64,000 bases of DNA from an uncultured Anaerolineaceae bacterium (GTDB lineage Bacteria > Chloroflexota > Anaerolineae > 4572-78). The stretch covers positions 3,649 to 67,648 of the forward strand of contig CAZMXX010000001.1 in assembly GCA_964570315.1 (NCBI GenBank), given 5' to 3'. The notes under the pieces are model-generated. The model was given only the letters and a program-made list of their open reading frames with translations. It searched no databases and was not told where the DNA came from. Positions 6,693 to 56,099 of the stretch are shown here, piece after piece (position 1 is the first letter of the stretch; each line of letters opens with the position of its first letter). The translations under genes were made by a program, and so were the position numbers.

Positions 6693-7364
6693 ATGTCAAA
6701 AATTATCCGCATATTGCTGGCAGATGACCACAATCTGTTGCGACAGGGTATCGCGCAAATGCTGTCGCTTCAGCCGGATATGACCGTGGTGGCGCAGGCG
6801 CAAAACGGCGTGGAGGCACTGGAACTGGTCGCCGAGCATAAACCCGATGTGGCATTAATGGACATCAACATGCCCGAAATGGATGGCGTTGCGGCAACCA
6901 AAGAAATCACCACCCGTTTCCCGGAAACGCAGGTGCTCATTTTGACGATGTACCGGCGCGATGATTATGTTTTTGACGCCATCAAAGCCGGGGCAAACGG
7001 GTATCTGCTGAAAGAAGTGGGGCTGGATGAACTGCTGGCATCGGTGCGCGCCGTCGCTCGCGGGGAAGCGGTCATCTCGCCCGCCATTGCCGGACGGGTG
7101 CTGCTGGAATTGCGCACCCCGTCGCAGAAAGACGCCCCTGAACCGGAACCCATTCCGGAACGGGACGCGGAAATATTGCAGTTGCTTGCGCAGGGCATGT
7201 CGAATCAAGACATCGCCGACCGTCTCTTTCTCTCGGAAAAAACAATCCGCAACCGGCTGTCACTGATTTTCAAACGGCTGCATCTGAAAAACCGCACCGA
7301 AGCCGCGCTGTACGCCATCAAACGCGGATTCGCCCCGCCGGACGAAGACTCAACCGGCGAATAA
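6693..7364 (+). CDS. NarL/FixJ (LuxR)-family response regulator
   Basis: REC (ILLADDH, ALMDINMPEMDG, LTMYRRDD) plus a LuxR HTH (ERDAEILQLLAQGMSNQDIADRLFLSEKTIRNRLSLIFKRL). Confidence 0.92.
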   Translation: MSKIIRILLADDHNLLRQGIAQMLSLQPDMTVVAQAQNGVEALELVAEHKPDVALMDINMPEMDGVAATKEITTRFPETQVLILTMYRRDDYVFDAIKAGANGYLLKEVGLDELLASVRAVARGEAVISPAIAGRVLLELRTPSQKDAPEPEPIPERDAEILQLLAQGMSNQDIADRLFLSEKTIRNRLSLIFKRLHLKNRTEAALYAIKRGFAPPDEDSTGE

Positions 7365-7369
7365 CCCCC

Positions 7370-7393
7370 ATTTCGGGACAAATGTCCCGAAAT
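7370..7393 (+). terminator. Perfect 10-bp hairpin 6 nt after the regulator stop (no T-tract)
   Basis: atttcgggac-aaat-gtcccgaaat. All 10 pairs are Watson-Crick. It overlaps the TGTCCCGA repeat array. Confidence 0.35.
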
Positions 7394-7510: not shown

Positions 7511-8233
7511 ATGAAATATCCGAAACTTATTTTATTCGTTGTGATGCTCACAGCCGCACTGATTGTCTCTGCCTGCGGCGGCGCGTCCACAACCACAAAA
7601 AATGATCCCCCCGCCGCCACATCACAGCCGGACACTACTGAAAAAGATTCGCAATCTGCCGTAAACGTCATCGAAACCAATGTAGAAAGCTCGGAAACAG
7701 AAACCGGCGATGAACACAGCGACGGTGACGAACACGCCGCCGAAGCACTACCCGCCGGTGATGCCGAACACAGCGATGGCGACGAACACGCCGCCACAGA
7801 AGCCCCCGCCACCGATGCCGAACACAGCGACGGCGATGAACATGCCGCCGCCGCCACCGAAGGCGAACACAACGACACCGAACACGAACACGAAACGCTA
7901 CCGGACGAATACGCGAGCAAAACCAATCCGTTCGCCAGCGGGGACGCTAATGCCCTTGCCGCCGGGGAACAGGTTTACACCGCCACCTGCGCCAGTTGTC
8001 ACGGTGCGGAAGGCAAAGGGGACGGTCCGGCTGCCGCTGCATTAGACCCGCATCCCGCAGACTTCACCAACGCCGAAATCATGAATGGCATGTCCGACAA
8101 TTATCTGTTCTGGCGAATTAGCGAAGGCGGCATGATGGCTCCGTTTAATTCATCAATGCCAGCGTGGAAACAAGCGCTCACCGAAGAACAACGCTGGCAG
8201 GCGATTTTATATCTGCGTACCTTTACGCAATAA
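7511..8233 (+). CDS. Lipoprotein class I cytochrome c with an N-terminal His/Asp/Glu-rich repeat region
   Basis: AAGGAG RBS 10 nt upstream. Signal peptide plus lipobox (LIVSAC). Single CASCH heme motif with a distal Met region (MMAPFNSSMPAW). Three copies of EHSDGDEHAA. Confidence 0.88.
   Translation: MKYPKLILFVVMLTAALIVSACGGASTTTKNDPPAATSQPDTTEKDSQSAVNVIETNVESSETETGDEHSDGDEHAAEALPAGDAEHSDGDEHAATEAPATDAEHSDGDEHAAAATEGEHNDTEHEHETLPDEYASKTNPFASGDANALAAGEQVYTATCASCHGAEGKGDGPAAAALDPHPADFTNAEIMNGMSDNYLFWRISEGGMMAPFNSSMPAWKQALTEEQRWQAILYLRTFTQ
7709..7894 (+). repeat. In-frame tandem repeat (about 45 bp x 3 plus a degenerate tail) encoding (A/D)EHSDGDEHAA-x-EAPA-x-D units
   Basis: GDEHSDGDEHAAEALPAGDAEHSDGDEHAATEAPATDAEHSDGDEHAAAATEGEHNDTEHEHE, read directly from the translation and the DNA. 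Confidence 0.85.
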
Positions 8234-41989: not shown

Positions 41990-43540
41990 ATGTCAACCTA
42001 TATTGAAAAATGGGACGTTGAAGACGAAGAATTTTGGGAGAGTACCGGGAAGAAGATTGCCTACCGCAACCTATGGATTTCCATTCCCAGTTTGTTGTGC
42101 GCCTTTGCCGTCTGGCTGTACTGGAGCATCATCACCGTACAAATGAAGAACCTCGGTTTCCCGTTTGATACGGCACAACTGTTCACCCTGTCTGCCATTG
42201 CCGGGCTGGTGGGGGCAACCTTGCGCATCCCGAACGCCTTCCTCATCTCTATTGCCGGTGGGAGAAACGTCATCGCCCTGACGACGGGACTGCTCATCAT
42301 TCCCGCGCTGGGCGTGGGCATCGCGCTGCAAAACCCTTCCACCCCGTACATCACCTTTGCCATTTTGGCGGCGCTGTCCGGTTTGGGCGGCGGAAACTTC
42401 TCGTCCTCGATGTCCAATATCAGTTTCTTTTTCCCCAAACGGATGCAAGGAACATCACTGGGGTTGAATGCCGGATTGGGGAACATCGGGGTGAGTGTGA
42501 TGCAGGTGTTGCTACCCTTTGTGATGACCTTCGCGCTGTTTGGCGCGTTGGGCGGCGACCCGCGTCCCCTGCCGACCGATGTGGGCGATAAAGTTGCGGG
42601 CACGCTGGTTTACATTCAAAACAGCGGGTTGGTCTGGGTTCCGATTCTATTCATTTTAGCCATCGCGGCATGGTTTGGCATGAATAACCTGTCAACCGCT
42701 TCCCCCAATTTAGGGTCAACCGCATCGGCACTGATGAAAATACTGGGACTGCTCCTGATTGGTTTCATCAGCGCCGCTGCGGGACTGTACCTGCTGCTGG
42801 GCTTAAAAGTCAGTATGTGGATTGTATTGCCCATCACCATTGTCCTCACGGTATATTTGATGAAGGCTGTACCGGGGGACATCAAAACCAACCTGAAAAA
42901 ACAGTTTGCCATCTTCAACAACAAGCACAACTGGATTATGACCTATCTGTACACCATGACTTTCGGGTCGTTCATCGGTTATTCGGCGGCGTTCCCGCTG
43001 CTCATCCGAGTGGTATTCGGCGAGTTGCCGAACGGCAGCATCAATCCCAACGCGCCCAACCCATTCGCGTACGCATGGTTGGGTCCGCTCGTCGGTTCCG
43101 TCGCCCGTCCCATCGGCGGGTGGGTATCCGATAAAATCGGCGGGGCGAAAGTCACCCAATGGGATACGGTCATCATGATTCTGTCGGCGTTGGGGGTGGC
43201 GTATTTTGTCAAACAAGCCGGCGCCTCGCCACAACCGGAACAATATTTCACGCCGTTCCTGATTCTGTTCCTGATTTTGTTCATCACCACCGGCGTGGGG
43301 AACGGCTCCACCTACCGCATGGTTCCCATCATCTTTGAACCGGCGCAAGCCGGACCGGTCTTGGGGTGGATTGCCGCCGTCGCCGCCTATGGCGCGTTCA
43401 TCATCCCCCGCGTCTTTGGACAACAAGTGAAAGCCGGTACGCCCGAATACGCGCTGTACGGGTTCGCAATTTATTACTTCACGTGTCTGGCGCTCAACTG
43501 GTATTATTACGCCCGCAAAAACGCCGAAATTGAGTGCTGA
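41990..43540 (+). CDS. narK: MFS nitrate/nitrite antiporter (NNP family, NarK2/NarT-type)
   Basis: 516 aa, 12+ TM, NNP signatures GLGGGNFSSSM and AGLGNIGVSVMQ. AAGGAG RBS. Confidence 0.9.
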   Translation: MSTYIEKWDVEDEEFWESTGKKIAYRNLWISIPSLLCAFAVWLYWSIITVQMKNLGFPFDTAQLFTLSAIAGLVGATLRIPNAFLISIAGGRNVIALTTGLLIIPALGVGIALQNPSTPYITFAILAALSGLGGGNFSSSMSNISFFFPKRMQGTSLGLNAGLGNIGVSVMQVLLPFVMTFALFGALGGDPRPLPTDVGDKVAGTLVYIQNSGLVWVPILFILAIAAWFGMNNLSTASPNLGSTASALMKILGLLLIGFISAAAGLYLLLGLKVSMWIVLPITIVLTVYLMKAVPGDIKTNLKKQFAIFNNKHNWIMTYLYTMTFGSFIGYSAAFPLLIRVVFGELPNGSINPNAPNPFAYAWLGPLVGSVARPIGGWVSDKIGGAKVTQWDTVIMILSALGVAYFVKQAGASPQPEQYFTPFLILFLILFITTGVGNGSTYRMVPIIFEPAQAGPVLGWIAAVAAYGAFIIPRVFGQQVKAGTPEYALYGFAIYYFTCLALNWYYYARKNAEIEC

Positions 43541-43562
43541 CCAATCATCCGTCTAATCAAAG

Positions 43563-43590
43563 AACCGGCAACATTGTTTGCCGGTTTTTT
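43563..43590 (+). terminator. Rho-independent terminator ending the nar locus
   Basis: aaccggcaa-cattgt-ttgccggtt (9-bp stem) followed by a T-run. Confidence 0.82.
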
Positions 43591-43686
43591 GGTACAAGAC
43601 AAAAGAGAATACCGATTAAGATTTTGTATCTGTGCCTATCCGTATTATAGTTGCTATTAATCTGCTATAATATTCCTGAGGATAGC

Positions 43687-45813
43687 ATGGCATACATAAC
43701 CGCGTTTTTTGAACAGAAACAGAATATCATCATCGTATTCTTTCTGTACGGGCTGGCATTTTATTCGATGGGGCTAGCGCTGATGCTCGCCAGCCGCCGT
43801 GCTTCAAAATTCCGCCTCGCCGATGCCATTCAGCCGCTGGCAGGTTTCGCCCTGCTGCACAGCGCCAACGAGTGGCTGCAAATGCTGGAAAAAATTCTCC
43901 AGCTAGCCGGTTCCACCCCGATGCCCCTCGTGTTCCACATCTTGCGAGTATCGCTGTTGGTCGCATCATTTGTGATGCTGGTGATTTTCGGGGTGATGCT
44001 CTCCACGCCCGCCGATGTCACCCTGCGGCAGGTGTGGGGCTCCATCTCGGTGCTGTTTGGTTTCTGGGTGCTGAACGTGTTGATTGTCACCGTCGTTTAT
44101 CAATTGAGCCTGTCGGACGTGCTCGTTGTGAGCGACATTTTAGCCCGTTACATTCTGGCTATTCCCGGTTCGCTGTTCAGCGCTTGGGCATTGCTCAAAC
44201 AGCGCAGAACCTTCCGCTTGCATCAACTGCCGCAATTCGGGCGGGATTTGGCAATTTGCGCCTTTGCGCTCATCGGATACGGGGTGGTGGGACAGTTTTT
44301 TGTGGAAAAAACATTCCTGTTCCCGTCAAACGTCATCAACAGCGCCTTGCTCTTCAGTTGGGTGGGCATTCCGGTTCAACTTTTGCGCGGTGGCTTCGTC
44401 ACCATTATTGCGATTTTCATGGTGCGGGCGCTCAACATTTTTGAAATTGAGCAGCAACATAAATTACACGAAGCACAACAGGCGAAAATAGATGCACAGC
44501 GGGCAGCAATCGACAGCGAACGCCGCCGCAACCACGAAAAAGATGCGCTGAATCAAGCCTTGCAGTTGAAAACGCAGGAACTTTCAGTCCTGCTGGAAGT
44601 CTCGACCCTGCTGGCATTGCCGCTTTCCCCGGCAGAAAAGCGCCGGCAGGTCTTGCAAGCCATCATTGATAGTCTCACCTTCCCTGACGCGGGTATGCTG
44701 ATTTTGAGCACAACGCCGCCGTCGGAAATCTCGGTGGATACAACCATCGGCTTTTCGCCCCCCGACACCGGCTCGGCATTGTACGACACCGCCAAAACGC
44801 TCGGCGCGCAGTGCATCGAATCGGGCAAGGTAATATGCCATCATCACAATGAGCGGCAATGGTTGTTCGACCCGCACAACATCGAGAAGCAAAACGCCTG
44901 TCGACAGGCAGCATCGCCGCTGGTGATTCTGGGATTGCCGCTCCGTTCCAAAAAAGGCATCATCGGTAGTTTGGTGCTGGCGCAGATTGAACCGGAACCG
45001 GCTCAAAGCCTACCGGCGGCGGAATTCAATCTGATGCTGAGCATCAGCCAACAACTGGGCATGTCGATTGAAAATGTCCGCTTGCGGCAGGACATTGAGC
45101 AGCATGAAGAAATCTTGAGCGCCCTGCTCGACCGGGTGGTGGAGGCGCAGGAGCATGAGCGCAAGCGCATCGCGCGGGAATTGCATGATGCCACCGGGCA
45201 ATCACTCTCTGCCATTGGGATGGGGTTGCGCGGGGTTGAAGCCATGCTCGAACAAAAACCGGATGTGGCAATGTCACATCTGCAACAACTGAAAAAATAC
45301 AGCGCCGATGCGCTGGGAGAACTGCGGCGTATCATCGCCAACCTGCGCCCATCACAATTGGATGATTTGGGACTGGAACCGACAATTCGCTGGTATGTCC
45401 ACAAATTTGAAGCGCAATACACCCTCCCGGTGCAAATGGAAATTGCCTATACGCCGCAGGCACTATCCGCCGATGAGGAAACCGCGCTCTTCCGCATCAT
45501 GCAAGAGGCGCTCACCAACATCGCCAAGCACGCGCAAGCGCAATCCGTATTCGTCTCACTGCAAGAAGATGACGAAACCATCTCGCTGGTGGTCGCCGAC
45601 GATGGCATCGGCTTCAATACCGATGACATTCTGCACTGCATCGGAGGGGGCAACGGATGGGGGCTGTTGGGCATTCAAGAACGGGTGCAATTGCTGGGCG
45701 GTGACTGCCGAATTATCTCCGCGCCGGAGCGTGGCACACAATTGCACGTGGATATTCCACTGGAAAAGAAGGCACACACATCATATGTCAAACATAAAAT
45801 TATTATTGGTTGA
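43687..45813 (+). CDS. Sensor histidine kinase with a 6-7 TM N-terminal domain, GAF, HisKA_3 and HATPase_c
   Basis: Polytopic N-terminus, coiled-coil, GAF-like region, H-box ARELHDATGQSL, NIAKHA, DDGIGF, GLLGIQERV. Confidence 0.85.
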   Translation: MAYITAFFEQKQNIIIVFFLYGLAFYSMGLALMLASRRASKFRLADAIQPLAGFALLHSANEWLQMLEKILQLAGSTPMPLVFHILRVSLLVASFVMLVIFGVMLSTPADVTLRQVWGSISVLFGFWVLNVLIVTVVYQLSLSDVLVVSDILARYILAIPGSLFSAWALLKQRRTFRLHQLPQFGRDLAICAFALIGYGVVGQFFVEKTFLFPSNVINSALLFSWVGIPVQLLRGGFVTIIAIFMVRALNIFEIEQQHKLHEAQQAKIDAQRAAIDSERRRNHEKDALNQALQLKTQELSVLLEVSTLLALPLSPAEKRRQVLQAIIDSLTFPDAGMLILSTTPPSEISVDTTIGFSPPDTGSALYDTAKTLGAQCIESGKVICHHHNERQWLFDPHNIEKQNACRQAASPLVILGLPLRSKKGIIGSLVLAQIEPEPAQSLPAAEFNLMLSISQQLGMSIENVRLRQDIEQHEEILSALLDRVVEAQEHERKRIARELHDATGQSLSAIGMGLRGVEAMLEQKPDVAMSHLQQLKKYSADALGELRRIIANLRPSQLDDLGLEPTIRWYVHKFEAQYTLPVQMEIAYTPQALSADEETALFRIMQEALTNIAKHAQAQSVFVSLQEDDETISLVVADDGIGFNTDDILHCIGGGNGWGLLGIQERVQLLGGDCRIISAPERGTQLHVDIPLEKKAHTSYVKHKIIIG

Positions 45814-46447
45814 TGATCACGATATTGTCCGCGCCGGACTGCGAATGTTGTTTGAAGCGGAAACTGATATTGAAATTGTGGGGGAAGCGAACAGCGGCAC
45901 GCGCGCGCTGGCGCTTTTGGAACACATCCAACCGGATGTGGTGGTTATGGACGTGGTGATGGACGATATGAACGGAATTGAAGCCACCCGGCGCATCAAA
46001 GCGCTGTATCCGTCCATCGTGGTTTTAGGGTTGACCATGCATGAAGCCCCGCAATATTTGTTTGAAATGCTGCAAGCCGGGGCGTCGGGCTATGTGCCCA
46101 AACGCGCCGCACCCGATGATTTGGTGAATGCCATCCACGTGGTGCATCGCGGAGAAGTCTTTTTGTATCCGCGCATGGCGGAATATTTGGTCAACGATTT
46201 CCTCAACCGCTCAACAACATCGGCGCCGAAACCGGCGAAGCGAAAAATCAACCTAACCCCCAGAGAGCATGAAATTCTGGTGAAAATCGCAGAAGGCAAT
46301 ACCAACCGTGAAATCGCGGAAATGCTGGCTATCAGCGTGAAAACGGTTGACCGTCACCGCGAGAATATCATGCACAAACTTCAAATCCACAGCCGCGTCG
46401 AACTCGTGAAATACGCCATCAGCAAAGGACTCATCTCGGTAGATTAA
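45785..46447 (+). CDS. NarL/FixJ (LuxR)-family response regulator
   Basis: Overlaps the kinase 3' end by 29 nt. REC (LLLVDDHD, VVMDVVMDDMNG, LTMHE) plus LuxR HTH (LTPREHEILVKIAEGNTNREIAEMLAISVKTVDRHRENIMHKL). Confidence 0.9.
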   Translation: MSNIKLLLVDDHDIVRAGLRMLFEAETDIEIVGEANSGTRALALLEHIQPDVVVMDVVMDDMNGIEATRRIKALYPSIVVLGLTMHEAPQYLFEMLQAGASGYVPKRAAPDDLVNAIHVVHRGEVFLYPRMAEYLVNDFLNRSTTSAPKPAKRKINLTPREHEILVKIAEGNTNREIAEMLAISVKTVDRHRENIMHKLQIHSRVELVKYAISKGLISVD

Positions 46448-46616
46448 ACGCCCCCATCCTGATATTTCCCCTTTCTCACCCACACCTTCTATGTGCCTGC
46501 CGCTACTTGCGCGCGCCATATAAACTTCTTCGCCTCTCCAAAACTTGAAACACCATCCATCATATGACATTTATCCTGAAATTGCGCGACAAATGTCACA
46601 AATCCGTATGTGAATA

Positions 46617-46645
46617 TTTACCCAACCGAAGAAATGGGTTATAAT
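46617..46645 (+). promoter_or_regulatory. Sigma-70-like promoter candidate for the multiheme cytochrome genes
   Basis: TTTACC-N17-TATAAT, with the perfect -10 at 46640-46645, about 155 nt upstream of the ATG at 46799. Inverted repeats TGACATTT-N18-AAATGTCA (46565-46598) and TCACA-N8-TGTGA (46596-46613) lie just upstream. Confidence 0.4.
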
Positions 46646-46798
46646 ACCCATATCAGTGGGTAAAAGTGCCCGCGAGATAGTGTCATGTGTATTTCTGATG
46701 GAGGTGTTTATTGAAAAAAACCCGGAAATAACTGTACCATATGTACTCTGCCACGTATTTATGCCACATTTCTCAACATGGAGGTTAGAGGGATAAAA

Positions 46799-48049
46799 AT
46801 GAAAAAAGTGTTAGTGTTAGCGGTAATTTTAGTATTGGCGCTGGTTGCAGCACAATGCGCTGCCGGACCTGCCGGACCACAAGGACCCGAAGGACCACAA
46901 GGACCTCCCGGACCCGCCGGTCCCCAAGGCGATGTAGGACCGCAAGGACCCGAAGGACCACAAGGACCCGCCGGTCCCGCCGGTGAAGATGGCGCGAGCT
47001 TTGAAGCCGCCACATACGTTGGACGAGAGGCGTGTCAAGAATGCCACCAAGACACCTACGACTCCTTCCTGAAAACCGGTCACCCCTACAAGCTGAACAA
47101 AGTTGTGGACGGCAAACCGCCGACATACCCGTTCTCCGAAGTTACCACTCCCCCTGAAGGCTACACCTGGGATGACATCAGCTACGTGATTGGCGGCTAC
47201 GGCTGGAAAGCCCGTTTCATCGACAAAAACGGCTACATCATCACCGGCGATGAAAACGCAAAAACCCAATACAACTTCTACAACGAAGATTTGGATATGG
47301 GTGACAACTGGGTTCCGTACCATGCCGGTGAACAAAAAGCCTACAATTGCGGGACATGCCACACCACCGGCTACAGCCCCGAAGGAAACCAGGATGGTCT
47401 GGAAGGGTTAATCGGCACATGGTCTGAACCGGGCATCAACTGTGAAGAATGCCACGGTCCCGGCAGCAACCACGTGAACGACCCCGTCGGCTTCCCGTTG
47501 AAAGTTGACCGCTCATCCGAAGCTTGCGGCGACTGCCACTACCGCAGCGACAAAACCGAGATTGATGCCAGCAGCGGCTTCATCAAGCATCATGAGCAGT
47601 TTGAAACGATGGCGCAAAGCAAACACAACGCCCTTGAATGCGTTGACTGCCACGACCCGCACAAGCCGGTCAAATACGCCAAAGGGAACGAAGGCACCAA
47701 AGTTCAGTGCGAAAGCTGCCACTTCAAACAGGTGGATTACCAAAAAATCACCGACCGCCAACACGCTGATTGTGTGGAATGCCACATGGCGCGAGCCTCG
47801 AAGAGCGCTCTGGGCGATATAGACCGCTTCACCGGCGACTTGCGGACACACCTGTTCGCCATCAACCCACTGGCAACCGAACAGTTCACTGAAGACGGCA
47901 GTTTCTCAATGCCGTACCTCACGCTGGACTACGCTTGCCGCAGTTGCCACTATGATGGCGGTCCCGCCAGTAACCTCACCGCCGAAGAACTCAAAGACAT
48001 GGCGGTTGGGTATCACGACCGAGACCTTGCCGGTAGTATGAACAAATAA
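46799..48049 (+). CDS. Octaheme c-type cytochrome with an N-terminal collagen-like (Gly-X-Y)14 region
   Basis: Signal peptide [20 protein letters not shown], 14 uninterrupted GXY triplets, then 8 CxxCH motifs (CQECH, CGTCH, CEECH, CGDCH, CVDCH, CESCH, CVECH, CRSCH). Confidence 0.87.
46865..46993 (+). repeat. Collagen-like triplet repeat coding region ([43 protein letters not shown])
   Basis: Read directly. The DNA is a 9/18-bp periodic repeat (ggaccacaaggacccgaa and similar). Confidence 0.9.
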
Positions 48050-48075
48050 TCACCCCATAAATTCAACGCAAGATG

Positions 48076-48103
48076 GGTAAGCCCGGTGCAAATCGGGCTT
48101 GCC
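48076..48103 (+). other. Intercistronic hairpin between cytochrome genes (no T-tract)
   Basis: ggtaagcccg-gtgcaaat-cgggcttgcc, a 10-bp stem with one G-U pair. Confidence 0.4.
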
Positions 48104-48131
48104 CTATCCTATTAGAGGGAGACCCTGACGC

Positions 48132-49943
48132 ATGCATTCAGCAAAATCAATGGCGTTTTTTGCTATCATAGCGTTCATTTTCTTAAACGCATTTAACATT
48201 GTTTATGCCGATAGACCCGTGCTGGATGCCCAGTGCCGACAATGCCACCGCGACAGTCGGCACACACTCACCTTCCCATCCGGCGATGAAGTATCATTGA
48301 AAATATCGTTGGATGCGTATGACCAATCGCCCCACGGTGCAAACGCCGACGCGCCGCTGCGCTGTACCGATTGTCATCGCCCCAGAAGCAATTATTTGTT
48401 CCCCCACGAACCTAATCAAACCCAATCTCTCCGGGAGTTTTCCAACGCGATAGCGCAAAATTGCGAACGGTGTCACTACCCGCACAACCCGTTTCATGCC
48501 ATCGAAACACAACAAAAAGCCGATTTGCCGACCTGCGTTGATTGCCACGGCGACCACAACATCACCCCGGTTGATGAAATTCCGGCGACAATGCCCTCGG
48601 CGTGCGTTGCCTGCCACGCCGACCAAACCGAAGATTGGGCAATTGATTTGATTCCGGCGCGCGAAGGTGTGGGCAATTCACCGGCAGCAGGGTACATCGG
48701 CAGTGACCGCTGCGGCGGATGTCATGAAGACATGTACGCCTCATGGCAAAACACCCTGCACGCAAAAATGATTCAGAACGTGACGAAAAACCCCAAAGTT
48801 GTTGTGGGGAACTTCACTCATGATGACCCTAATTTACCCTTTGGTCTCGATGATGTCCGTTACACCATCGGCAGTAAATGGAAACAACGTTACCTCACCC
48901 AAACCGATACGGGCGAGTTTTACATTTTGCCCGCCCAGTGGAATGTGGAAACGGGCGAATGGGTTCCCTATCATGCCGAAGATTGGCAAACCCGCGAATG
49001 GCGACAAACGTGCGGCTCATGCCATGTGACCGGGCTGAATACCGACACCTGGGATTTTGTGGAATTCGGCATCGGGTGCGAAAGCTGCCACGGTCCCGGC
49101 GCGGAACACGCCGCCGCCCCGAAAAACATTCAACTGTACCAAGAAGTGGACGACCAAGTGTGCGGCGCCTGCCACAGCCGGGGCAAATCGCCCGACGGAT
49201 ACAGCTTCCCCGCCACCTATCGCCCCGGTGACTCCCTCGCCGACCATTTCACCGCCACCACCGCCGACACGGCTGTGTGGGCGGATGGCAGCGCGAAAGA
49301 GCACCATCAGCAATATATGGATTGGCAATTGGGCAGCAAGATGCAGCAATCGGGCAAAGTGAACTGCACCACCTGCCACAGCACTCACGACGACGGACAG
49401 GCGGACGGACAATTGAACGCCCCGCTCAACGATTTGTGCCTGCAATGCCACACCGATAAAACCCGGCTCATCGAACACATCCCCTACCATCAACAAGCCA
49501 GCCAAAAACACACTTTCATCTGCTCGGATTGCCACATGCCCAAAATGGCGAAAAGCGCCGTCGCCTACGACATCCGCAACCACAGTTTCCTGCAACCCAA
49601 CCCGGATGCCTCCGTGGCGCACGGCGGCTTTGAAGCCATGCCGAATGCGTGCAACACCTGCCACACCGCTCCGGCGGAAACCGCGCAATGGGCGGCGGAA
49701 ACCATCGCCTATGCCCAAACGCAGAAACCCGCCTTCGGAACCATCTCGCTGGTGGACGCAGACGTGCCACCCCCACCCACCCCCATCCCCTCGGTGGGGC
49801 AAAAAGCCGATGTGGAATCCTATAAAGTCGAGACCGGACGCTGGATTCGAGTGTCATTTTATGTTGTGGTGATACTGCTTGTATTGTGGGGATTTTATGC
49901 GGCATATCGAACCATCACTTCCCGGAGGTCGCGCAATGCGTAA
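48132..49943 (+). CDS. 13-heme c-type cytochrome with a C-terminal TM anchor
   Basis: Signal peptide, 13 CxxCH motifs, a PPPPTP linker, and C-terminal TM VSFYVVVILLVLWGFYAAY followed by basic residues. Confidence 0.9.
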   Translation: MHSAKSMAFFAIIAFIFLNAFNIVYADRPVLDAQCRQCHRDSRHTLTFPSGDEVSLKISLDAYDQSPHGANADAPLRCTDCHRPRSNYLFPHEPNQTQSLREFSNAIAQNCERCHYPHNPFHAIETQQKADLPTCVDCHGDHNITPVDEIPATMPSACVACHADQTEDWAIDLIPAREGVGNSPAAGYIGSDRCGGCHEDMYASWQNTLHAKMIQNVTKNPKVVVGNFTHDDPNLPFGLDDVRYTIGSKWKQRYLTQTDTGEFYILPAQWNVETGEWVPYHAEDWQTREWRQTCGSCHVTGLNTDTWDFVEFGIGCESCHGPGAEHAAAPKNIQLYQEVDDQVCGACHSRGKSPDGYSFPATYRPGDSLADHFTATTADTAVWADGSAKEHHQQYMDWQLGSKMQQSGKVNCTTCHSTHDDGQADGQLNAPLNDLCLQCHTDKTRLIEHIPYHQQASQKHTFICSDCHMPKMAKSAVAYDIRNHSFLQPNPDASVAHGGFEAMPNACNTCHTAPAETAQWAAETIAYAQTQKPAFGTISLVDADVPPPPTPIPSVGQKADVESYKVETGRWIRVSFYVVVILLVLWGFYAAYRTITSRRSRNA

Positions 49944-51624
49944 ACTCACTAGCCTGAAAGACCGTATCAGCAATTTCATCACGCCGGAGCGCACCGCACC
50001 CCGTTGGACGCGGGCATTGCCGTATCTCACCCTGATTGCGTTCGGCGTGTTGTTGTTCATTTTGGCGGGCGCGGGATGGGAATATACCAACAGCTCGGAG
50101 TTTTGCGGCACGGCGTGCCACACCATGCCGCCGGAATACGCCTCCTACAAAGCTTCACCGCACGCCAACGTAAAATGCGTGGAATGTCACATCGGGCGCG
50201 GATACATCGCCACCCAATTCACCCGCAAAGCCGGCGACATGACCCATGTGTTCAAATATATCGGCGCGGAATATGAAGTGCCCATCTACATCAAAAGTAT
50301 GCGCCCCGCCGAGCAGATTTGCGAAAAGTGCCACAACGCGCAAAAATATTCGGATGACAGTCTGCGCCAAATTCAGCATTTTGATGCCGAAAACAATAAC
50401 GCTATGACCACCACTTTTTTGGCGTTCAAAACCGGGGGCGGCACGTCAACGCAGGGGCAGGGAAAGGGCATCCACTGGCACACCGAAAACACCGTGGAAT
50501 ACATCGCGGTGGATGCACCCTACCTTGAGCAGAAAATTCCCTGGGTGCGGGTGACCTATGCCGACACCGGCGAAACGGCTGAATTCGTGGACATCACCGC
50601 AGACCTGCCCGCCGATTTTCAACCCCAAAACGCCGCGCGGATGAAAACCATGGACTGCACCACCTGCCACAATCGCATCGCCCACACCTTCCCCAACCCG
50701 TCGGATGCGCTGGATGACGCGATGGCGCGCGGCATCATTTCGCCGCAAATTCCATACATCAAAAAGAACGCCGTCGCCGTGATTGAGCGCGAATACCCCA
50801 CCATCGAAGATGCGCTTTTCGCCATAAAAGGCTTGAAAGATTATTACGCCGAAAATTGGTCGGAATATTACGCCGAAAATCAGGTAGTGGTTGATGCTGC
50901 CGTGGACAATCTGGCGGTGATGTACAAAAATATGGTCTTCCCCACCATGGACATCACTTGGGATACCCACCCCGACAACGTGGGGCACGATGAATCGGCG
51001 GGCTGTTTCCGCTGCCATGACGGGAAACATCTGAAAGTGAACAGCGACACCGACGTCATCTCCGCCGAATGCAACTTGTGTCACACTATCCCCGCCACCA
51101 CCACCGCCGACGGAACCATCCCCCCGCTCGCCGTCGCCGATGCCTTCCAGCCGGAATCGCACGCCGACAGCTTGTGGATTGCCCGCCATCGCTTCACATT
51201 CGATGACACCTGCGAAGGCTGCCACACCATTGAAAACCCCGGCGGCGCGGATAACACCGGCTTCTGCGCCAACAGCGCGTGCCACGCCTCGGAATTCAAG
51301 TATGCCGGGTTCAACACGTCGAGCATTCTGGCAATGGTCAATCGTTTGGACGACGGCTTGCCGCGCTATCCGGGGGCAAACCTCACGTGGGATGACCTCA
51401 TTTCGCCCATCATGCAAAATCGGTGTGTGGTCTGCCACAATGAAAACACAACCCTCAATTTGAGCGATTATACTTCGGTGATGGATAGCGGGACGGTTAT
51501 ACCGGGCAATGCTGCGGAAAGCGCGCTGGTGACGGTTCAATCTGCCGGACACACCAACGCCCTCCCCGCCGATGCCACAGACTGGCTGAAGGCATGGATT
51601 GACGCCGGTGCGCCGGAAAAATAA
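49936..51624 (+). CDS. NapC/NirT/NrfH-like membrane-anchored multiheme cytochrome with an extended C-terminal heme domain
   Basis: 8-nt overlap with the upstream gene. N-terminal TM followed by TNSSEFCGTACHTMPPEY (NapC/NirT-like first heme site, but CX3CH). 7 canonical CxxCH motifs plus CANSACH (CX4CH). The C-terminal CVVCHN...VIPGNAAESAL resembles a PSCyt1-type domain. Confidence 0.85.
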   Translation: MRKLTSLKDRISNFITPERTAPRWTRALPYLTLIAFGVLLFILAGAGWEYTNSSEFCGTACHTMPPEYASYKASPHANVKCVECHIGRGYIATQFTRKAGDMTHVFKYIGAEYEVPIYIKSMRPAEQICEKCHNAQKYSDDSLRQIQHFDAENNNAMTTTFLAFKTGGGTSTQGQGKGIHWHTENTVEYIAVDAPYLEQKIPWVRVTYADTGETAEFVDITADLPADFQPQNAARMKTMDCTTCHNRIAHTFPNPSDALDDAMARGIISPQIPYIKKNAVAVIEREYPTIEDALFAIKGLKDYYAENWSEYYAENQVVVDAAVDNLAVMYKNMVFPTMDITWDTHPDNVGHDESAGCFRCHDGKHLKVNSDTDVISAECNLCHTIPATTTADGTIPPLAVADAFQPESHADSLWIARHRFTFDDTCEGCHTIENPGGADNTGFCANSACHASEFKYAGFNTSSILAMVNRLDDGLPRYPGANLTWDDLISPIMQNRCVVCHNENTTLNLSDYTSVMDSGTVIPGNAAESALVTVQSAGHTNALPADATDWLKAWIDAGAPEK

Positions 51625-51651
51625 TTCCTCGTTCCATCATAATTCCTCCCA

Positions 51652-51681
51652 AGCCACCATCTGCGGATGGTGGCTTTTTTT
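51652..51681 (+). terminator. Rho-independent terminator ending the cytochrome cluster
   Basis: agccaccatc-tgcg-gatggtggct (10-bp perfect stem) followed by tttttt. Confidence 0.88.
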
Positions 51682-52013
51682 GTTCTCCGCCAATTTCGTA
51701 TCTTTCGGCAACTTCTTCCGTCAAACATAAAGGCAAGATTCACCGTGCCGCATCGGCATCCGACATTCACGTTATTTTTACGCTATTTTTACGAAAGATT
51801 CACCGCGCACCATATCTTCAACGTAAAAACCACGTCATTAGCAGCAACAAACAAATAACCGGCTTAAAAAAGATTTAAGGTTCCTTAACCTTGTTTTAAA
51901 TACAGTTCCTCAGCTTTTTGTTATTGTTGGTATCACGACATACCTGCATTCTCACCACTCCGACAATGAGCCGTCCCAAGTTCTTCAAGTTTGTGAAAGG
52001 TAATATTTCAAAT

Positions 52014-53285
52014 ATGGTTCGCATACTCTCAACCCTTCTCTCCTCCATTGCGCTGGCTGTTGCCGCAATGTTTGTGGCATCAATGAGTTTGCGCCCGGTG
52101 CAGGCGCAAGCGCCGACCGCCACCGCCGGCAATTCGCTGATTTGGCCACTCTCCGGCACAACCACCCCCGATGTCGCTTCATCGCCGTTTGGTCCGCGCT
52201 GGCAAGCTTCGCAAAACCGTTACGATTATCACCCCGGCATGGATTTACCCGCGCCGCAAAACGACCCCGTTTATGCCGTCGCCGACGGGGTGGTGACAGA
52301 AGTGGGTTGGCTTTCGGCGAGCGCGGGGTTGGGCGTGGTGATATATCATCCCACACAGAATTTATATTCCGCCTATCTGCATTTGAATAGCACTTCGGTG
52401 GCGGTCAGCGATGCCGTCACGCAGGGGCAGGTCATCGGCGCGGTGGGCGATACCGGCATCACCGATTTTATGCACGTGCATTTTGAAATCCGGTTGACCG
52501 CCACAAACTATCCGACCTCCACGCGCAATCCGGTGGGGTATCTGCCCATTGCCGATGTCTCCACCCCAACCATCCGCATCGGCAGTTTGAACAGCAATCC
52601 TTTCGACAGCGCCACTGTTTCGCTGGTGATTACCGCCGCCCGCACCGAGTTGGACGTGAACGCCATCACCGTGACCGTGCGCGACAAAGCGACGGGCGCA
52701 GTGGTGGACACCCACTCGGTTGATTTGAATCAACGCATCCCCACCGGCTCGGACACGCTGACAACCGCCGATGTCACGCTGCAACCCGCGCGATTCAATA
52801 CTTCCACCACAGAATATGAGTTGACAGCGAATTTCAATTTGCATGCGAATGACAGTTTCACGCTCACCGCAGAGGTCGCCGATGTGGCGGGACACACGGC
52901 GTCGGTGTCGCAGGTGGCGTATGATACCACGCCCCCCGCGCAAATTGATTCGCTTTCCGCCCTGTGGCGCACCGATGGCGGGGTGGATTTGCGCTGGACG
53001 GCGCCGGGCGACAACGGGATGGTCGGGATGGCGGTGCAGTATGATATTCGATACAGCGGTTCACCCATCGACAGTTTTTCATGGTACGGCGCAACGTCCA
53101 TCACCTCGCCGCCGACGCCGGTGACGGGGGGCACAGCGCAAACGTTCACCGTGCCCAGCCCCCTGCCCGACCCGGTATACTTCGCCATTAAAACCACCGA
53201 CAATGAAGGCAACCAATCGCTATTGTCCAATTCGGCGCAGGCGCACGCTGTATGGCGCGTCTTTTTGCCCCTAATTGTCAAATGA
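52014..53285 (+). CDS. Secreted M23 (LytM-type) metallopeptidase with Ig/FN3-like C-terminal domains and an FLPLIVK C-terminal tail
   Basis: Signal peptide (ALAVAAMFVASMSLRPVQAQA). M23 motifs YHPGMD (HxxxD) and MHVHFE (HxH). FN3-like segment (DLRWTAPGDNG...YDIRYS). Ends VWRVFLPLIVK. Confidence 0.85.
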   Translation: MVRILSTLLSSIALAVAAMFVASMSLRPVQAQAPTATAGNSLIWPLSGTTTPDVASSPFGPRWQASQNRYDYHPGMDLPAPQNDPVYAVADGVVTEVGWLSASAGLGVVIYHPTQNLYSAYLHLNSTSVAVSDAVTQGQVIGAVGDTGITDFMHVHFEIRLTATNYPTSTRNPVGYLPIADVSTPTIRIGSLNSNPFDSATVSLVITAARTELDVNAITVTVRDKATGAVVDTHSVDLNQRIPTGSDTLTTADVTLQPARFNTSTTEYELTANFNLHANDSFTLTAEVADVAGHTASVSQVAYDTTPPAQIDSLSALWRTDGGVDLRWTAPGDNGMVGMAVQYDIRYSGSPIDSFSWYGATSITSPPTPVTGGTAQTFTVPSPLPDPVYFAIKTTDNEGNQSLLSNSAQAHAVWRVFLPLIVK

Positions 53286-53372: not shown

Positions 53373-56099
53373 ATGAAAGTATCTACATTCACCCCCGTTG
53401 CATCCCGCCTGAAATCTCTGGTATGGGTTTTGGTGGCTGCCATCGCTCTGACCGGCGGATTGTTGGCGGCACTGGCAGCGACAGCGGTCGCATCCGCGCC
53501 ACAAGAAGCGCAAGCGGTGACGGGCGGCGCGCGGAGCGTCGCCACAATTTCCCTGCCCAACCAAAGCGGGCTGGAACCCTACGCAATGGCATACAATTCA
53601 TCAAACGGGTACATTTACGTGACCAACAACAACACCAACGATGTCTCGGTCATCGCCGGGTCAACCGTCATCGCCCGCATTCCGGTGGGGAGCGGTCCGC
53701 GCGGCATCACCTATAATACGGGGAACGGGCGAATGTATATCGCCAATAAATCCTCCGACAGCGTCAGCGTGATTAATGGCACCACCAAAGAAGCCGACAT
53801 TCCCGTCGGCAATCGCCCGTCGAATATCAAATTCAACCCGGCAAACAATTACGTGTATGTCGCCGACACATTGAGCGACACCGTGACCATCATTGATGGA
53901 CCCAACGTCATTGCGACCGTGCCGGTGGGCAATCACCCCAGTGTGCTGGTGGTGAACGACAACGCCGCTTCGCCAAATTACGGCGACGTGTATGTGACCA
54001 ATCTTTTGAGCGATACCGTGACCATCATCGGCGGGGCGAATGGCAAAACGGTGCTTGGCACGCTGCCCACGGGCGGCATCCGCCCCACCGACCTGACCTT
54101 CAACCCGAACAGCGGGTATGTGTATGTGGTGAACACCTATAGCGACACGCTGACCACCAAAGGGAGCGTGACGGTGATTGACAGCGCCACCCGCGCGGTG
54201 AAGCGCGTTTTTTCGGTCAACACCCGCCCCACCGCCATCACCGCCGACCGGGGGAACGATAACGCCTATGTGCTGAACACCGGCGGCGACAGCGTGAATG
54301 TTCTGCGCCGTTCCGGGCGCGCCCTGCCCCAAAGCTGGTTCCGGGTGGGGAATTATCCGCGCCGCGTGCGGGTAGACCCGGTGACGCATATGGTGTACAT
54401 CGCCAACGCATACAGCGATACCGTCACCGTGTTGGACGGCAACGCCCCCGACAGCACCGTCGCGGTGAGCGTCGCCGGGACGGTGAATGTGGGCGATGCG
54501 CCGCAAGCCATCCAAATTGACCCGACGAATCACAACGTGTATGTGGGTAATCGCGGGGGCAATACCATTTCCATATTGAACGGCACATCGCTGGTGGGAA
54601 CTATTCCCGCGCAGTATTACCCCACCCACATCGCCATCAATCCGAACAACGGTTACGCCTACGTGCCCATGCGCGGCGGCAATGTGGTGCGAATTTACAA
54701 CGGCACATCGCTGGTGAAAGAAGTGCCGGTGCGCCACAACCCGCGCGCGGTCGCCATCAACCCCGCCACCAACATCGCCTATGTCGCCAATTTCGACAGC
54801 AAATCCATCTCGGTGATTGATGCCGCATACAACCCGATTGCACGCATCAAACTGGGGCAAAAGGGTCCCATCCATGTGGCGGTTGACAGCGCCAACAATC
54901 TGGTTTATGCCGCCAACTGGTACAGCGACACCGTCAGCGTGATAAACACTTCAACCAACGCGGTCATCGGGGCGGTAGCAGTGGGCGCAAACCCCCGCTA
55001 CATTGCCATTGACCCCAATACCGGCTTCGCCTACGTGGCGAATACCTATGGCAACACGGTATCCGTGTTGCAGGGAACCACCGTGAAAGCGACGCTCGCG
55101 CCGGGATTGGAACCCCGTTTCGCCCTGTACAATCCGGTGAACGGCAATATTTACGTCAGCAATAAAACCGATGGCACGGTCAGCGTATTCAACGGGCTGA
55201 GCAAACTCGGTGACGTGACCGTCGGGGCGCAACCGGAAGATATGGCAGTGGATGCCGCCGGGCGGGTGTATGTCTCCAATTATGCGGGTAATTCCGTTTC
55301 CATCATTGATGGAACCGGCTTGGTCGCCACCGTTGCGGTGGGGCAAGGACCCGAAGGCATCACGGCGGGCAGCAATGGGCAGGTTTTTGTCAGCAACACG
55401 CTGGACAACACCGTGAGCGTCATCGAAGGAACATCCGTTGTTGCCACCTATGCCGTGGGCGCGAGACCCCGTTCCGTCGCTTACAGCCCCACCACCGACC
55501 AAGTTTTCGTCGCTAATTACGATGGCGCATCCATCTCGGTGCTGAGTACCGAACCCCCGCGCGGCGATTTCTCCGGCACACCGCGCAGTAACGCCGCCGC
55601 GCCCGCCGGCGTCAGCTTCAGCAGCGTCGTCACCGGCGCGGTGACAGGCTATGCGTGGACATTCGGCGACGGCACGACCGCCACCGCCGCCAATCCGAGC
55701 CACACCTACACCACCCCCGGCAATTACGGCGTCTCGCTCACCGTGAGCGGTCCCGGCGGCTCGACGGTCATCTCCAAAACGGATTACATTTTCGTCGCCG
55801 CGCCCACCGCCGGACCGGAAGCCAATTTCTCCGCGAACCAAGTTGCGGGCGAAGTGCCTTTCACCGTCACCTTCACCGCCGTCACCACCAACACCGTGGA
55901 CACCTGGGCATGGGATTTCGGCGATGGCAGTACCGCTACCACCGGACCCACCGTTCAGCACACCTACACCGCCGTCGGCGATTATGAAGTGCGCCTGACC
56001 GTCGGCAACAGCACCGACAACTTCATCGTCGATAAACCGGCATACATTCACGCCAGCAATCCGGTATTCTATGTGTTCCTGCCGTTGGTGTTGAAGTAA
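53373..56099 (+). CDS. YVTN-family beta-propeller repeat protein with two C-terminal PKD domains and an FLPLVLK C-terminal tail
   Basis: Signal peptide. About 15 repeats of the pattern P-x-x-I-x-x-N-P-x-x-G-x-V-Y-V-x-N-x-x-S-D-T-V-S-V-I. Two PKD-like units (WTFGDGTTA..., WDFGDGSTA...). Ends NPVFYVFLPLVLK. Confidence 0.87.
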   Translation: MKVSTFTPVASRLKSLVWVLVAAIALTGGLLAALAATAVASAPQEAQAVTGGARSVATISLPNQSGLEPYAMAYNSSNGYIYVTNNNTNDVSVIAGSTVIARIPVGSGPRGITYNTGNGRMYIANKSSDSVSVINGTTKEADIPVGNRPSNIKFNPANNYVYVADTLSDTVTIIDGPNVIATVPVGNHPSVLVVNDNAASPNYGDVYVTNLLSDTVTIIGGANGKTVLGTLPTGGIRPTDLTFNPNSGYVYVVNTYSDTLTTKGSVTVIDSATRAVKRVFSVNTRPTAITADRGNDNAYVLNTGGDSVNVLRRSGRALPQSWFRVGNYPRRVRVDPVTHMVYIANAYSDTVTVLDGNAPDSTVAVSVAGTVNVGDAPQAIQIDPTNHNVYVGNRGGNTISILNGTSLVGTIPAQYYPTHIAINPNNGYAYVPMRGGNVVRIYNGTSLVKEVPVRHNPRAVAINPATNIAYVANFDSKSISVIDAAYNPIARIKLGQKGPIHVAVDSANNLVYAANWYSDTVSVINTSTNAVIGAVAVGANPRYIAIDPNTGFAYVANTYGNTVSVLQGTTVKATLAPGLEPRFALYNPVNGNIYVSNKTDGTVSVFNGLSKLGDVTVGAQPEDMAVDAAGRVYVSNYAGNSVSIIDGTGLVATVAVGQGPEGITAGSNGQVFVSNTLDNTVSVIEGTSVVATYAVGARPRSVAYSPTTDQVFVANYDGASISVLSTEPPRGDFSGTPRSNAAAPAGVSFSSVVTGAVTGYAWTFGDGTTATAANPSHTYTTPGNYGVSLTVSGPGGSTVISKTDYIFVAAPTAGPEANFSANQVAGEVPFTVTFTAVTTNTVDTWAWDFGDGSTATTGPTVQHTYTAVGDYEVRLTVGNSTDNFIVDKPAYIHASNPVFYVFLPLVLK

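Follow-up and report, generated by a model that had tools for sequence, protein, structure and literature searches.

A conserved three-gene cytochrome cluster with a collagen-like stalk in an Anaerolineaceae bacterium: a candidate quinol-to-surface electron conduit

Multiheme conduits of bacteria without an outer membrane are already known from Thermincola and Carboxydothermus. The nonaheme OcwA of Thermincola potens (PDB 6I5B) is a terminal reductase at the cell surface (PMC6703420), and the undecaheme OmhA of Carboxydothermus ferrireducens (PDB 6QVM), an S-layer cytochrome of a host without an outer membrane, is the dominant surface cytochrome on ferrihydrite and a surface-exposed candidate ferrihydrite reductase (PMC7829351). 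The DNA described here, a stretch of 64,000 nucleotides (the window) from an uncultured Anaerolineaceae bacterium (GenBank assembly GCA_964570315.1, contig CAZMXX010000001.1, positions 3,649 to 67,648), carries a variant of this architecture. Three adjacent plus-strand genes at 46799-51624, here called A, B and C, encode a collagen-stalked octaheme cytochrome, a 13-heme cytochrome with a C-terminal membrane anchor and an NrfH-like nonaheme cytochrome. On balance, their sequences lead us to favour a role as a conduit that carries electrons from quinol to the surface of a cell without an outer membrane. Sediments, hot springs, wastewater sludge and anode biofilms harbour abundant filamentous Chloroflexota (Anaerolineae, Caldilineae), which have repeatedly been suspected of extracellular electron transfer; to our knowledge, no molecular pathway has been described for them. 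Ardenticatena maritima is the sole Chloroflexi isolate studied for extracellular electron transfer in the searchable literature (PMC5808234, PMC7399161). The literature searched contained no paper that describes the cluster or a collagen-stalked multiheme cytochrome and none that links OcwA to Chloroflexi, and no title or abstract on multiheme cytochromes of Anaerolineae or Chloroflexota describes such a cluster.

The three proteins together have 30 heme sites. A first-pass annotation, made from the DNA letters alone, had described three contiguous cytochromes with 8, 13 and 9 sites, and this count holds: A has eight CXXCH motifs, B has 13, and the nine of C are made up of seven CXXCH, one CX3CH and one CX4CH. 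The octaheme modules of A and B carry the link to surface reductases. OcwA matches residues 175-515 of B with an E-value of 2e-36, and it matches A with 3e-15 as a single sequence and 9e-22 as a profile. OmhA matches A with E-values of 6e-8 to 3e-11 and B with 3e-12. The alignments cover hemes 1-4 and 6-9 of OcwA, and the OcwA segment 264-306, which holds the fifth motif (CLKCH), has no counterpart in either protein. Residues 65-393 of A align with residues 179-520 of B (hhalign probability 100, E 5e-42) and this profile comparison identifies the C-terminal two thirds of B as paralogous to A. In sequence, the closest characterised relatives of both octaheme modules are the surface iron reductases OcwA and OmhA.

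Profile matches of the A octaheme to other multiheme enzymes are weak (MccA 2e-9, partial; octaheme nitrite reductase 0.02; NrfA 0.03). A structure search with Foldseek, starting from a poor model of A, gave weak matches alone, the best to 6QVM (E 1e-3) and another to MccA. The catalytic motif CXXCK is absent from A, B and C, A and B contain no CX15CH motif (nor any CX5-20CH), and PF13447 (HAO family) is not among their Pfam hits. On motifs and profile scores, A and B were rejected as orthologues of NrfA, HAO, Otr, MccA and the octaheme nitrite reductase; clear orthology to a soluble N- or S-oxide reductase of the NrfA, Otr, HAO or MccA type was a finding that, according to the first-pass annotation, would overturn its proposal of an electron conduit.

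A is predicted to be tethered to the cell by a lipid. It has a single hydrophobic segment, at its N-terminus, and its signal peptide ends in a lipobox-like motif. The position of Cys20 is occupied by Cys in 45 of 48 aligned relatives, and this residue is the sole cysteine outside heme motifs across A, B and C. A lipobox-like motif recurs in 102 of the 107 clusters of A-related proteins of similar size, and the genome encodes both Lgt and LspA. A is probably a lipoprotein. Two residues past Cys20 an uninterrupted run of Gly-X-Y triplets begins, most of which are Gly-Pro-X. The stalk that the first-pass annotation had read as collagen is supported by Pfam Collagen (32.7 bits, curated cut-off 27.2), and the NCBIfam Scl models recognise the Gly-X-Y run as well. 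Runs of 10-17 triplets, with a mode of 13-14, are present in 100 of the 107 clusters. The stalk probably forms a triple helix, in which case it would be approximately 13 nm long and A would be a trimer. The octaheme head follows, with a His-His pocket motif at residues 264-265 (His264 in 45 and His265 in 43 of the 48 relatives), and only approximately 32 residues remain after the last heme motif.

B combines a wire-like heme array with a membrane helix. Behind a predicted cleavable signal peptide lies a pentaheme module with partial matches to DmsE-family models and to models of MtrC domain II/IV, and this is followed by the octaheme module that is paralogous to A. Each of the 13 heme motifs is retained in 113-114 of 114 relatives, and the His-His pair in just 12 of the 114. 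A proline-rich linker starts approximately 35 residues beyond the last motif of the octaheme and leads into the single C-terminal membrane anchor, which the first-pass annotation had recognised and for which hydropathy gives one peak. Linker, helix and basic tail are conserved across 23 aligned relatives.

C was described in the first pass as a NapC/NirT/NrfH-like protein with an N-terminal membrane anchor. This assignment is borne out by PF03264 (36.9 bits, cut-off 24.1), by a match of its N-terminus to NrfH of Desulfovibrio vulgaris (PDB 2J7A, E 2e-7) and by one hydropathy peak at residues 24-51 that is preceded by basic residues. In domain order, C consists of the N-terminal helix, the NrfH-like hemes 1-4, four further hemes including the CX4CH site, and a monoheme domain resembling PSCyt1 (PF07635), which is annotated on relatives of C. 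Hemes 1-3 align with those of 2J7A, an insertion of approximately 100 residues precedes heme 4, and FCGTACHTM of C aligns with FC-TSCHIM of NrfH. The NrfH-type CH-x-Met signature is thus present in C, though the attachment motif is CX3CH (CGTACH). The CX4CH motif is CANSACH; both this motif and the CX3CH-x-Met signature are invariant in 40 of 40 relatives. Since the scores of C for the NrfH, NapC and TorC equivalog models are far below their cut-offs (e.g., 56 vs. 134 bits), C belongs to the NapC/NirT/NrfH superfamily but is not an equivalog of these proteins. It is probably a membrane-anchored menaquinol dehydrogenase of the NrfH type. A, B and C all stay below the cut-offs of the NCBIfam models, and a Foldseek search with the model of C gave no usable match (best E 2).

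The cluster is conserved as a unit across genera, as a check of the neighbourhood in related genomes showed. In all nine relatives that could be read through the cluster, the genes stand on one strand in the order A(-A')-B-C, with 52-97% protein identity to the copies in the window; A lies directly upstream of B and is sometimes accompanied by a second, stalkless paralogue. These relatives comprise four genomes of the same genus (G002, G003, G004 and G006), three genera of another family of the same order (G015, G017 and G023), Anaerolineales bacterium HSG6 and a Caldilineaceae genome. The start codon of C falls within the final codons of B, and the resulting overlap of 8 nt (ATGCGTAA) is the one that the first pass had taken as a sign of translational coupling. 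The overlap pattern ATGNNTRA is retained in nine of nine relatives, which argues for translational coupling and a fixed ratio of B to C. Ribosome-binding sites of the GGAGG type precede the start codons at 46799, 48132 and 49936, and A and B are separated by 82 nt (48050-48131). One further genome (G040, locus L022, 2966-6037) encodes a collagen-stalked A homologue beside a C homologue with no B between them, which implies that the modules can be combined. Several genomes encode one or two extra A paralogues.

Relatives of the individual modules are more numerous. A metagenome protein collection contained more than 1500 relatives of B and more than 2000 of A (E up to 1e-10), and the few that are named among the full-length relatives listed carry the labels Caldilineaceae, Anaerolineales or Chloroflexi. 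Stand-alone octaheme relatives with 26-40% identity occur in many phyla and belong to no curated family, as no NCBIfam model recognises them at its cut-off. At three loci from Proteobacteria and Desulfobacterota (L032, L034 and L043) such octahemes have approximately 420-470 residues and are followed by a conserved triheme protein of approximately 215-230 residues, which no NCBIfam model matches. Four other proteins (P0242, P0246, P0253 and P0264), one of which carries the label candidate division Zixibacteria, are 16-heme lipoproteins of approximately 720 residues with two tandem A-type octaheme modules and no collagen run. The DNA of the window itself occurs in hydrothermal-vent and microbial-mat metagenomes. 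ARMA_0580 of Ardenticatena maritima, a protein of 430 residues with seven CXXCH motifs and an N-terminal signal, was immunostained on filaments and migrates at 74 kDa, compared with 48 kDa predicted (PMC5808234). On this description it resembles the A family in size and layout and could be a member.

The coordinates of the cluster and of the neighbouring regulatory features are collected in Table 1.

Table 1. Features of the A-B-C cluster and its upstream region, in window positions.
Feature	Position	Strand	Details
Sensor histidine kinase gene	43687-45813	+	approximately 7 N-terminal membrane helices, HisKA_3, HATPase
NarL/LuxR-family response regulator gene	45785-46447	+	NCBIfam NarL-type matches 1e-43 to 1e-52
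Upstream box 1 (TATGACATTTATCC)	46563-46576		degenerate GTGAC-N4-GTCAC; perfect palindrome in G006
Upstream box 2 (GCGACAAATGTCAC)	46586-46599		one mismatch from GTGAC-N4-GTCAC; perfect in G002 and G006
Promoter-like site	46617-46645	+	-35 TTTACC, 17-nt spacer, -10 TATAAT; 10 of 12 consensus positions match
A gene	46799-48049	+	416 aa from ATG at 46799; 8 CXXCH
A signal peptide, lipobox-like VAAQ-C (Cys20)	46799-46858	+	conserved Cys; only non-heme cysteine
A collagen-like run, residues 23-67	46865-46999	+	15 Gly-X-Y triplets; Pfam Collagen PF01391
A octaheme module, OcwA type	47000-48049	+	8 CXXCH; matches to 6I5B and 6QVM
Intercistronic GC-rich stem-loop	48072-48108	+	just 5' of the B ribosome-binding site
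B gene	48132-49943	+	603 aa; 13 CXXCH
B signal peptide (predicted cleavage between VYA and DRP) and N-terminal pentaheme module	48132-48653	+	5 CXXCH, 5 invariant extra His
B octaheme module	48654-49706	+	paralogous to A; homologous to OcwA hemes 1-4 and 6-9
B proline-rich linker (PPPPTPIPSVGQ), single membrane helix, basic cytoplasmic tail	49707-49943	+	hydropathy peak at residues 569-596
C gene	49936-51624	+	562 aa from ATG at 49936; overlaps B by 8 nt
Intrinsic-terminator-like hairpin, then TTTTTTTGTT	51651-51686	+	11 pairs; hairpin at 51651-51676

The signals around the cluster are consistent with a single transcription unit. The first-pass annotation had pointed to a promoter-like element upstream of A and a strong terminator behind C, and both are the best sites of their kind in a scan of 8.8 kb; the terminator-like hairpin is followed by a T run. 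Across five species of the genus both hexamers, -35 and -10, are conserved (-10 block GGGTTATAATACCCATAT). No promoter-like site was found by the scan within the gap between A and B. This gap holds a GC-rich stem-loop of -31.3 kcal/mol (z-score -3.3) that is not followed by a T run, and hairpins of unrelated sequence occupy the same position in G002, G003, G006, G017 and G023. The stem-loop may act in attenuation or in a stabilisation of the transcript that favours A. A search of 43000-53000 against Rfam gave zero matches.

Upstream of A lies a two-component system. The first pass had placed a kinase/LuxR pair there, and the pair indeed adjoins the cluster in five relatives, i.e., in all four same-genus genomes that were read and in G015, from another family of the order; the limits of the two genes had to be corrected to those given in Table 1. 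The kinase starts at an ATG with a GAGGA site and matches HisKA_3 (3e-19), HATPase_c (6e-16) and, weakly, GAF. The regulator gene overlaps the 3' end of the kinase gene, and its product passes no NCBIfam equivalog cut-off. Within the genus the kinase orthologue adjoins the cluster in G002, G003, G004 and G006, and the regulator orthologues beside the cluster are 70-96% identical, whereas in G015 a shorter pair stands 3' of C. The spacer between the regulator gene and A contains two palindromic boxes, both conserved when five species of the genus are aligned. The centre of box 2 lies approximately 59 nt upstream of the putative transcription start. Because regulators of the NarL/DosR type use 5-N4-5 palindromes, the adjacent regulator probably binds both boxes. 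The predicted lipid anchor of A, the paralogy of A and B, the stem-loop and the conserved boxes had all been missed in the first pass.

Similar boxes stand elsewhere in the genome. One GTGAC-N4-GTCAC box (C25:13078) lies approximately 85 nt upstream of a gene pair for an NrfH and an HAO-type octaheme, and two tandem boxes (C63:10638-10667) lie approximately 85 nt upstream of a triheme cytochrome gene, which suggests a shared regulon of respiratory cytochromes. Within the window, a perfect palindrome (GGGACAAATGTCCC) at 7375-7388 follows a LuxR-type regulator gene (6693-7364), precedes the gene of a monoheme cytochrome c (7511-8233) and has the 10-nt core of box 2.

The cell envelope fits a conduit that needs no porin. 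As the first pass had stated, there is no gene for a beta-barrel porin, either in the window or flanking the cluster, and the 89.5%-complete genome gave no match to Omp85/BamA in a search that was positive for seven of the 14 control genomes, each of which belongs to a bacterium with an outer membrane. The genome has 17 reading frames with at least three CXXCH motifs, and CcmF is encoded within the window. Two giant multiheme cytochromes carry 33 CXXCH each (C44:9312-12011, 899 aa; C178:1182-5603, 1473 aa). Two 12-heme cytochromes (C179:2823-5651 and C181:3384-5012) have an Ala/Glu-rich coiled-coil stalk and a C-terminal membrane helix and, from their sequences, represent stalked cytochromes of a second kind. 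An orthologue of the C179 protein, with 71% identity, is encoded directly 3' of C in HSG6. Downstream of the cluster, an M23 peptidase and the next protein, of the YVTN/PKD type, end in similar tails (VWRVFLPLIVK at 53244-53285 and VFYVFLPLVLK at 56061-56099), which may be a C-terminal sorting signal.

From these features the following path of electrons can be proposed. The conduit would sit on the outer face of the cytoplasmic membrane and carry electrons out through the wall. C would be the point of entry, where menaquinol is oxidized at a first heme that bears the methionine signature of a quinol site, with eight further hemes to pass the electrons on. B, coupled to C in a probable 1:1 complex and tied to the membrane by its C-terminal helix and proline-rich linker, would serve as a 13-heme wire. 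A would form the distal module, in which a lipid anchor and a collagen-like segment of approximately 13 nm, a probable triple helix, carry the octaheme head that passes electrons to an external acceptor. The His-His pocket, which in OcwA covers the open heme 2, is retained by A and relaxed in B, which suggests that A is the acceptor-facing end and B the wire. Likely acceptors would be insoluble or bulky extracellular oxidants, e.g., Fe(III) or Mn(IV) minerals, humic substances and electrodes, and the chain could also operate in reverse. Expression would probably start at the promoter-like site in Table 1 under control of the adjacent kinase and the NarL/LuxR-type regulator acting on the two boxes, and the stem-loop may raise the amount of A relative to B and C.

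A more specific version of this proposal is possible, but we hold it with considerable reserve. A would be a homotrimer with three lipid anchors, and its collagen triple helix (approximately 12-14 nm) would work as a molecular ruler that places a 24-heme head at the outer face of the wall, docked on a 22-heme base formed by B and C, with the stem-loop setting the excess of A. This would be an undescribed class of reversible wall-spanning conduit. MccA is a homotrimer, which would suit a triple-helical stalk of A.

Several observations weigh against a conduit to the cell surface. The residue before the lipobox Cys of A is Gln (VAAQC), which is atypical. The distribution of the cluster is patchy: of 56 genomes of the order, 11 encode a B orthologue (6 of 27 genera), and a sample of 400 genomes from elsewhere in the phylum gave none. 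A sample containing this DNA is represented by three small metatranscriptome runs, in which nothing comes from the region or from this organism. The AlphaFold2 monomers have mean pLDDT values of 48.6 for A (alignment of 48 sequences) and 63.3 for C (40 sequences), too poor for conclusions on heme arrangement, trimerisation, contacts or the extra domains of C. Since a collagen rod is non-conducting, it must be assumed that the head of A contacts B or C directly. Furthermore, OcwA belongs to the structural NrfA/MccA/c554 superfamily and slowly reduces nitrite and hydroxylamine (PMC6703420), so that the His-His pair conserved in A could be the mark of a site where a soluble substrate is turned over. 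Genes for narGHI and two narK-type genes lie directly upstream of the cluster region, and a search of the 89.5%-complete genome gave no NrfA, NirK or NirS. As the main alternative, the cluster could then encode a quinol-linked enzyme that reduces an N- or S-oxide in solution, e.g., nitrite, hydroxylamine, NO, sulfite or tetrathionate, in which C would serve A and B as NrfH serves NrfA, B would store or conduct electrons and A would be catalytic at the open heme 2 under its His-His pair. Such an enzyme might remove nitrite formed by the neighbouring nitrate reductase. Further to this, OcwA minus its heme 5 has the heme complement of MccA (PMC6703420), so that the heme complement of the A and B modules, which have no heme 5, is the one equated with MccA in that paper, and the profile matches to MccA, octaheme nitrite reductase and NrfA, though weak, point the same way. 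However, A and B have neither CXXCK nor CX15CH nor spare cysteines for a copper site. They also do not match PF13447, whereas the separate HAO-type octaheme on contig C25 does (1e-32), has its own NrfH and is a more obvious nitrite or hydroxylamine enzyme; from its sequence, this pair appears to be the only obvious nitrite-handling candidate in the genome. Nitrite turnover by OcwA is only approximately 1 per minute (PMC6703420). Moreover, a small diffusible substrate would hardly call for 30 hemes, three separate membrane anchors and a stalk whose length is conserved. The position beside the nar genes, shared only with the closest relative among the genomes read, also counts against such an enzyme. 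A reductase of this kind therefore seems unlikely, though it deserves to be taken seriously.

The nitrate respiration locus also bears on the direction of electron flow. Its position next to the cluster, which the first pass had mentioned, stands in this genome and in its closest relative (B 94% identical), but there is no wider synteny, and beyond these two genomes synteny gives no support for a link to nitrate respiration. Electron uptake, from Fe(II), reduced minerals or a cathode via A, B and C to menaquinone and the adjacent nitrate reductase, would agree with this neighbourhood and with the occurrence of the organism in vent and mat metagenomes. Ardenticatena maritima couples cathodic electron uptake to nitrate reduction (PMC5808234), and a NapC/NirT-family protein was proposed to reduce quinone in an iron oxidiser (bioRxiv 10.1101/2022.01.10.475773). 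However, OcwA and OmhA, the relatives that have been characterised, reduce external acceptors, and the sequence holds no indication of direction, so we regard uptake as the main function as improbable. It is very improbable that there is no single chain at all, i.e., that A is transcribed alone up to the stem-loop and serves another pathway while only B and C cooperate. The strong conserved stem-loop between A and B, the restriction of translational coupling to B and C, and the extra A paralogues in several genomes would agree with such a split. Against it, each of the nine relatives has A directly upstream of B and on the same strand, the gap has no promoter-like site, the stem-loop lacks a T run, and A stands directly beside C where B is absent (G040). 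We therefore retain the conduit from quinol to the cell surface as the preferred reading of the cluster.

With this reading, A, B and C are a concrete, conserved and compact three-gene candidate for an extracellular electron transfer pathway in Chloroflexota. With them the OcwA/OmhA family reaches a new phylum and takes on a new architecture, with an as yet undescribed mode of spanning the wall, in which a non-conducting collagen-like spacer that bears the terminal heme head would stand beside a membrane-anchored 13-heme wire. If this holds, porin-cytochrome complexes and the Thermincola relay would be joined by a third design of conduit across the envelope, and the three genes would provide a marker set for mineral respiration by Chloroflexota in metagenomes. 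If the stalk is indeed a ruler, Caldilineales-type Chloroflexota would be able to respire minerals or take up electrons for nitrate reduction.

Among the described systems, that of Thermincola is one of the closest to the cluster. A and B share a homologous heme domain with OcwA, with CXXCH at every site of the octahemes, and A keeps the His-His pair over the open heme 2. The pathway ImdcA-PdcA-CwcA-OcwA likewise relays electrons through the wall, with no porin, in a cell that lacks an outer membrane. However, OcwA has nine hemes, including a second open heme 5, whereas the modules of A and B have eight each. Beyond its last motif OcwA has approximately 100 residues (chain of 526, last motif near 414), with a C-terminal three-helix bundle that is missing in A and B. 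In contrast to OcwA, A has a predicted lipid anchor and a collagen-like stalk, and in B a pentaheme module and a membrane helix are fused to the octaheme. On the quinol side the partner here is an NrfH-like nonaheme, in place of the decahemes of Thermincola, and the A, B and C genes differ from those of the OcwA system in being contiguous and partly overlapping. OmhA differs by its eleven hemes, its other N-terminal part and its weak attachment to the surface of the cell; it lacks a lipid anchor, a collagen stalk and a membrane helix, and its gene lies outside such a three-gene unit.

C resembles NrfH, NapC, NirT and CymA in its single N-terminal helix, the aligned hemes 1-3 and the methionine signature at heme 1, and like them it would be expected to link the pool of menaquinol with a chain of hemes outside the cytoplasm. 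It differs from NrfH by having 562 residues and nine hemes instead of approximately 160 residues and four, a CX3CH motif at heme 1, the insertion of approximately 100 residues before heme 4, the CX4CH heme and the PSCyt1-like C-terminal domain. MccA of Wolinella succinogenes (4RKM) shares the heme complement of A and B, together with weak profile and Foldseek matches, but A and B lack its CX15CH heme and copper-site cysteines and are much shorter, and the similarity is partial. The arrangement of a Gly-X-Y stalk between cell anchor and globular head relates A to Scl1 and Scl2 of Streptococcus and to BclA of Bacillus, from which it differs by a shorter run (15 triplets), a predicted lipid anchor instead of LPXTG or exosporium attachment, and a multiheme head. 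Lastly, the logic of the Mtr and Pcc systems of Shewanella and Geobacter, from quinol dehydrogenase via a multiheme wire to a surface reductase, recurs here, and the pentaheme part of B partially matches MtrC domain II/IV and DmsE models; the cluster differs from them in having no porin gene and a surface module that is unrelated to MtrC and OmcA.

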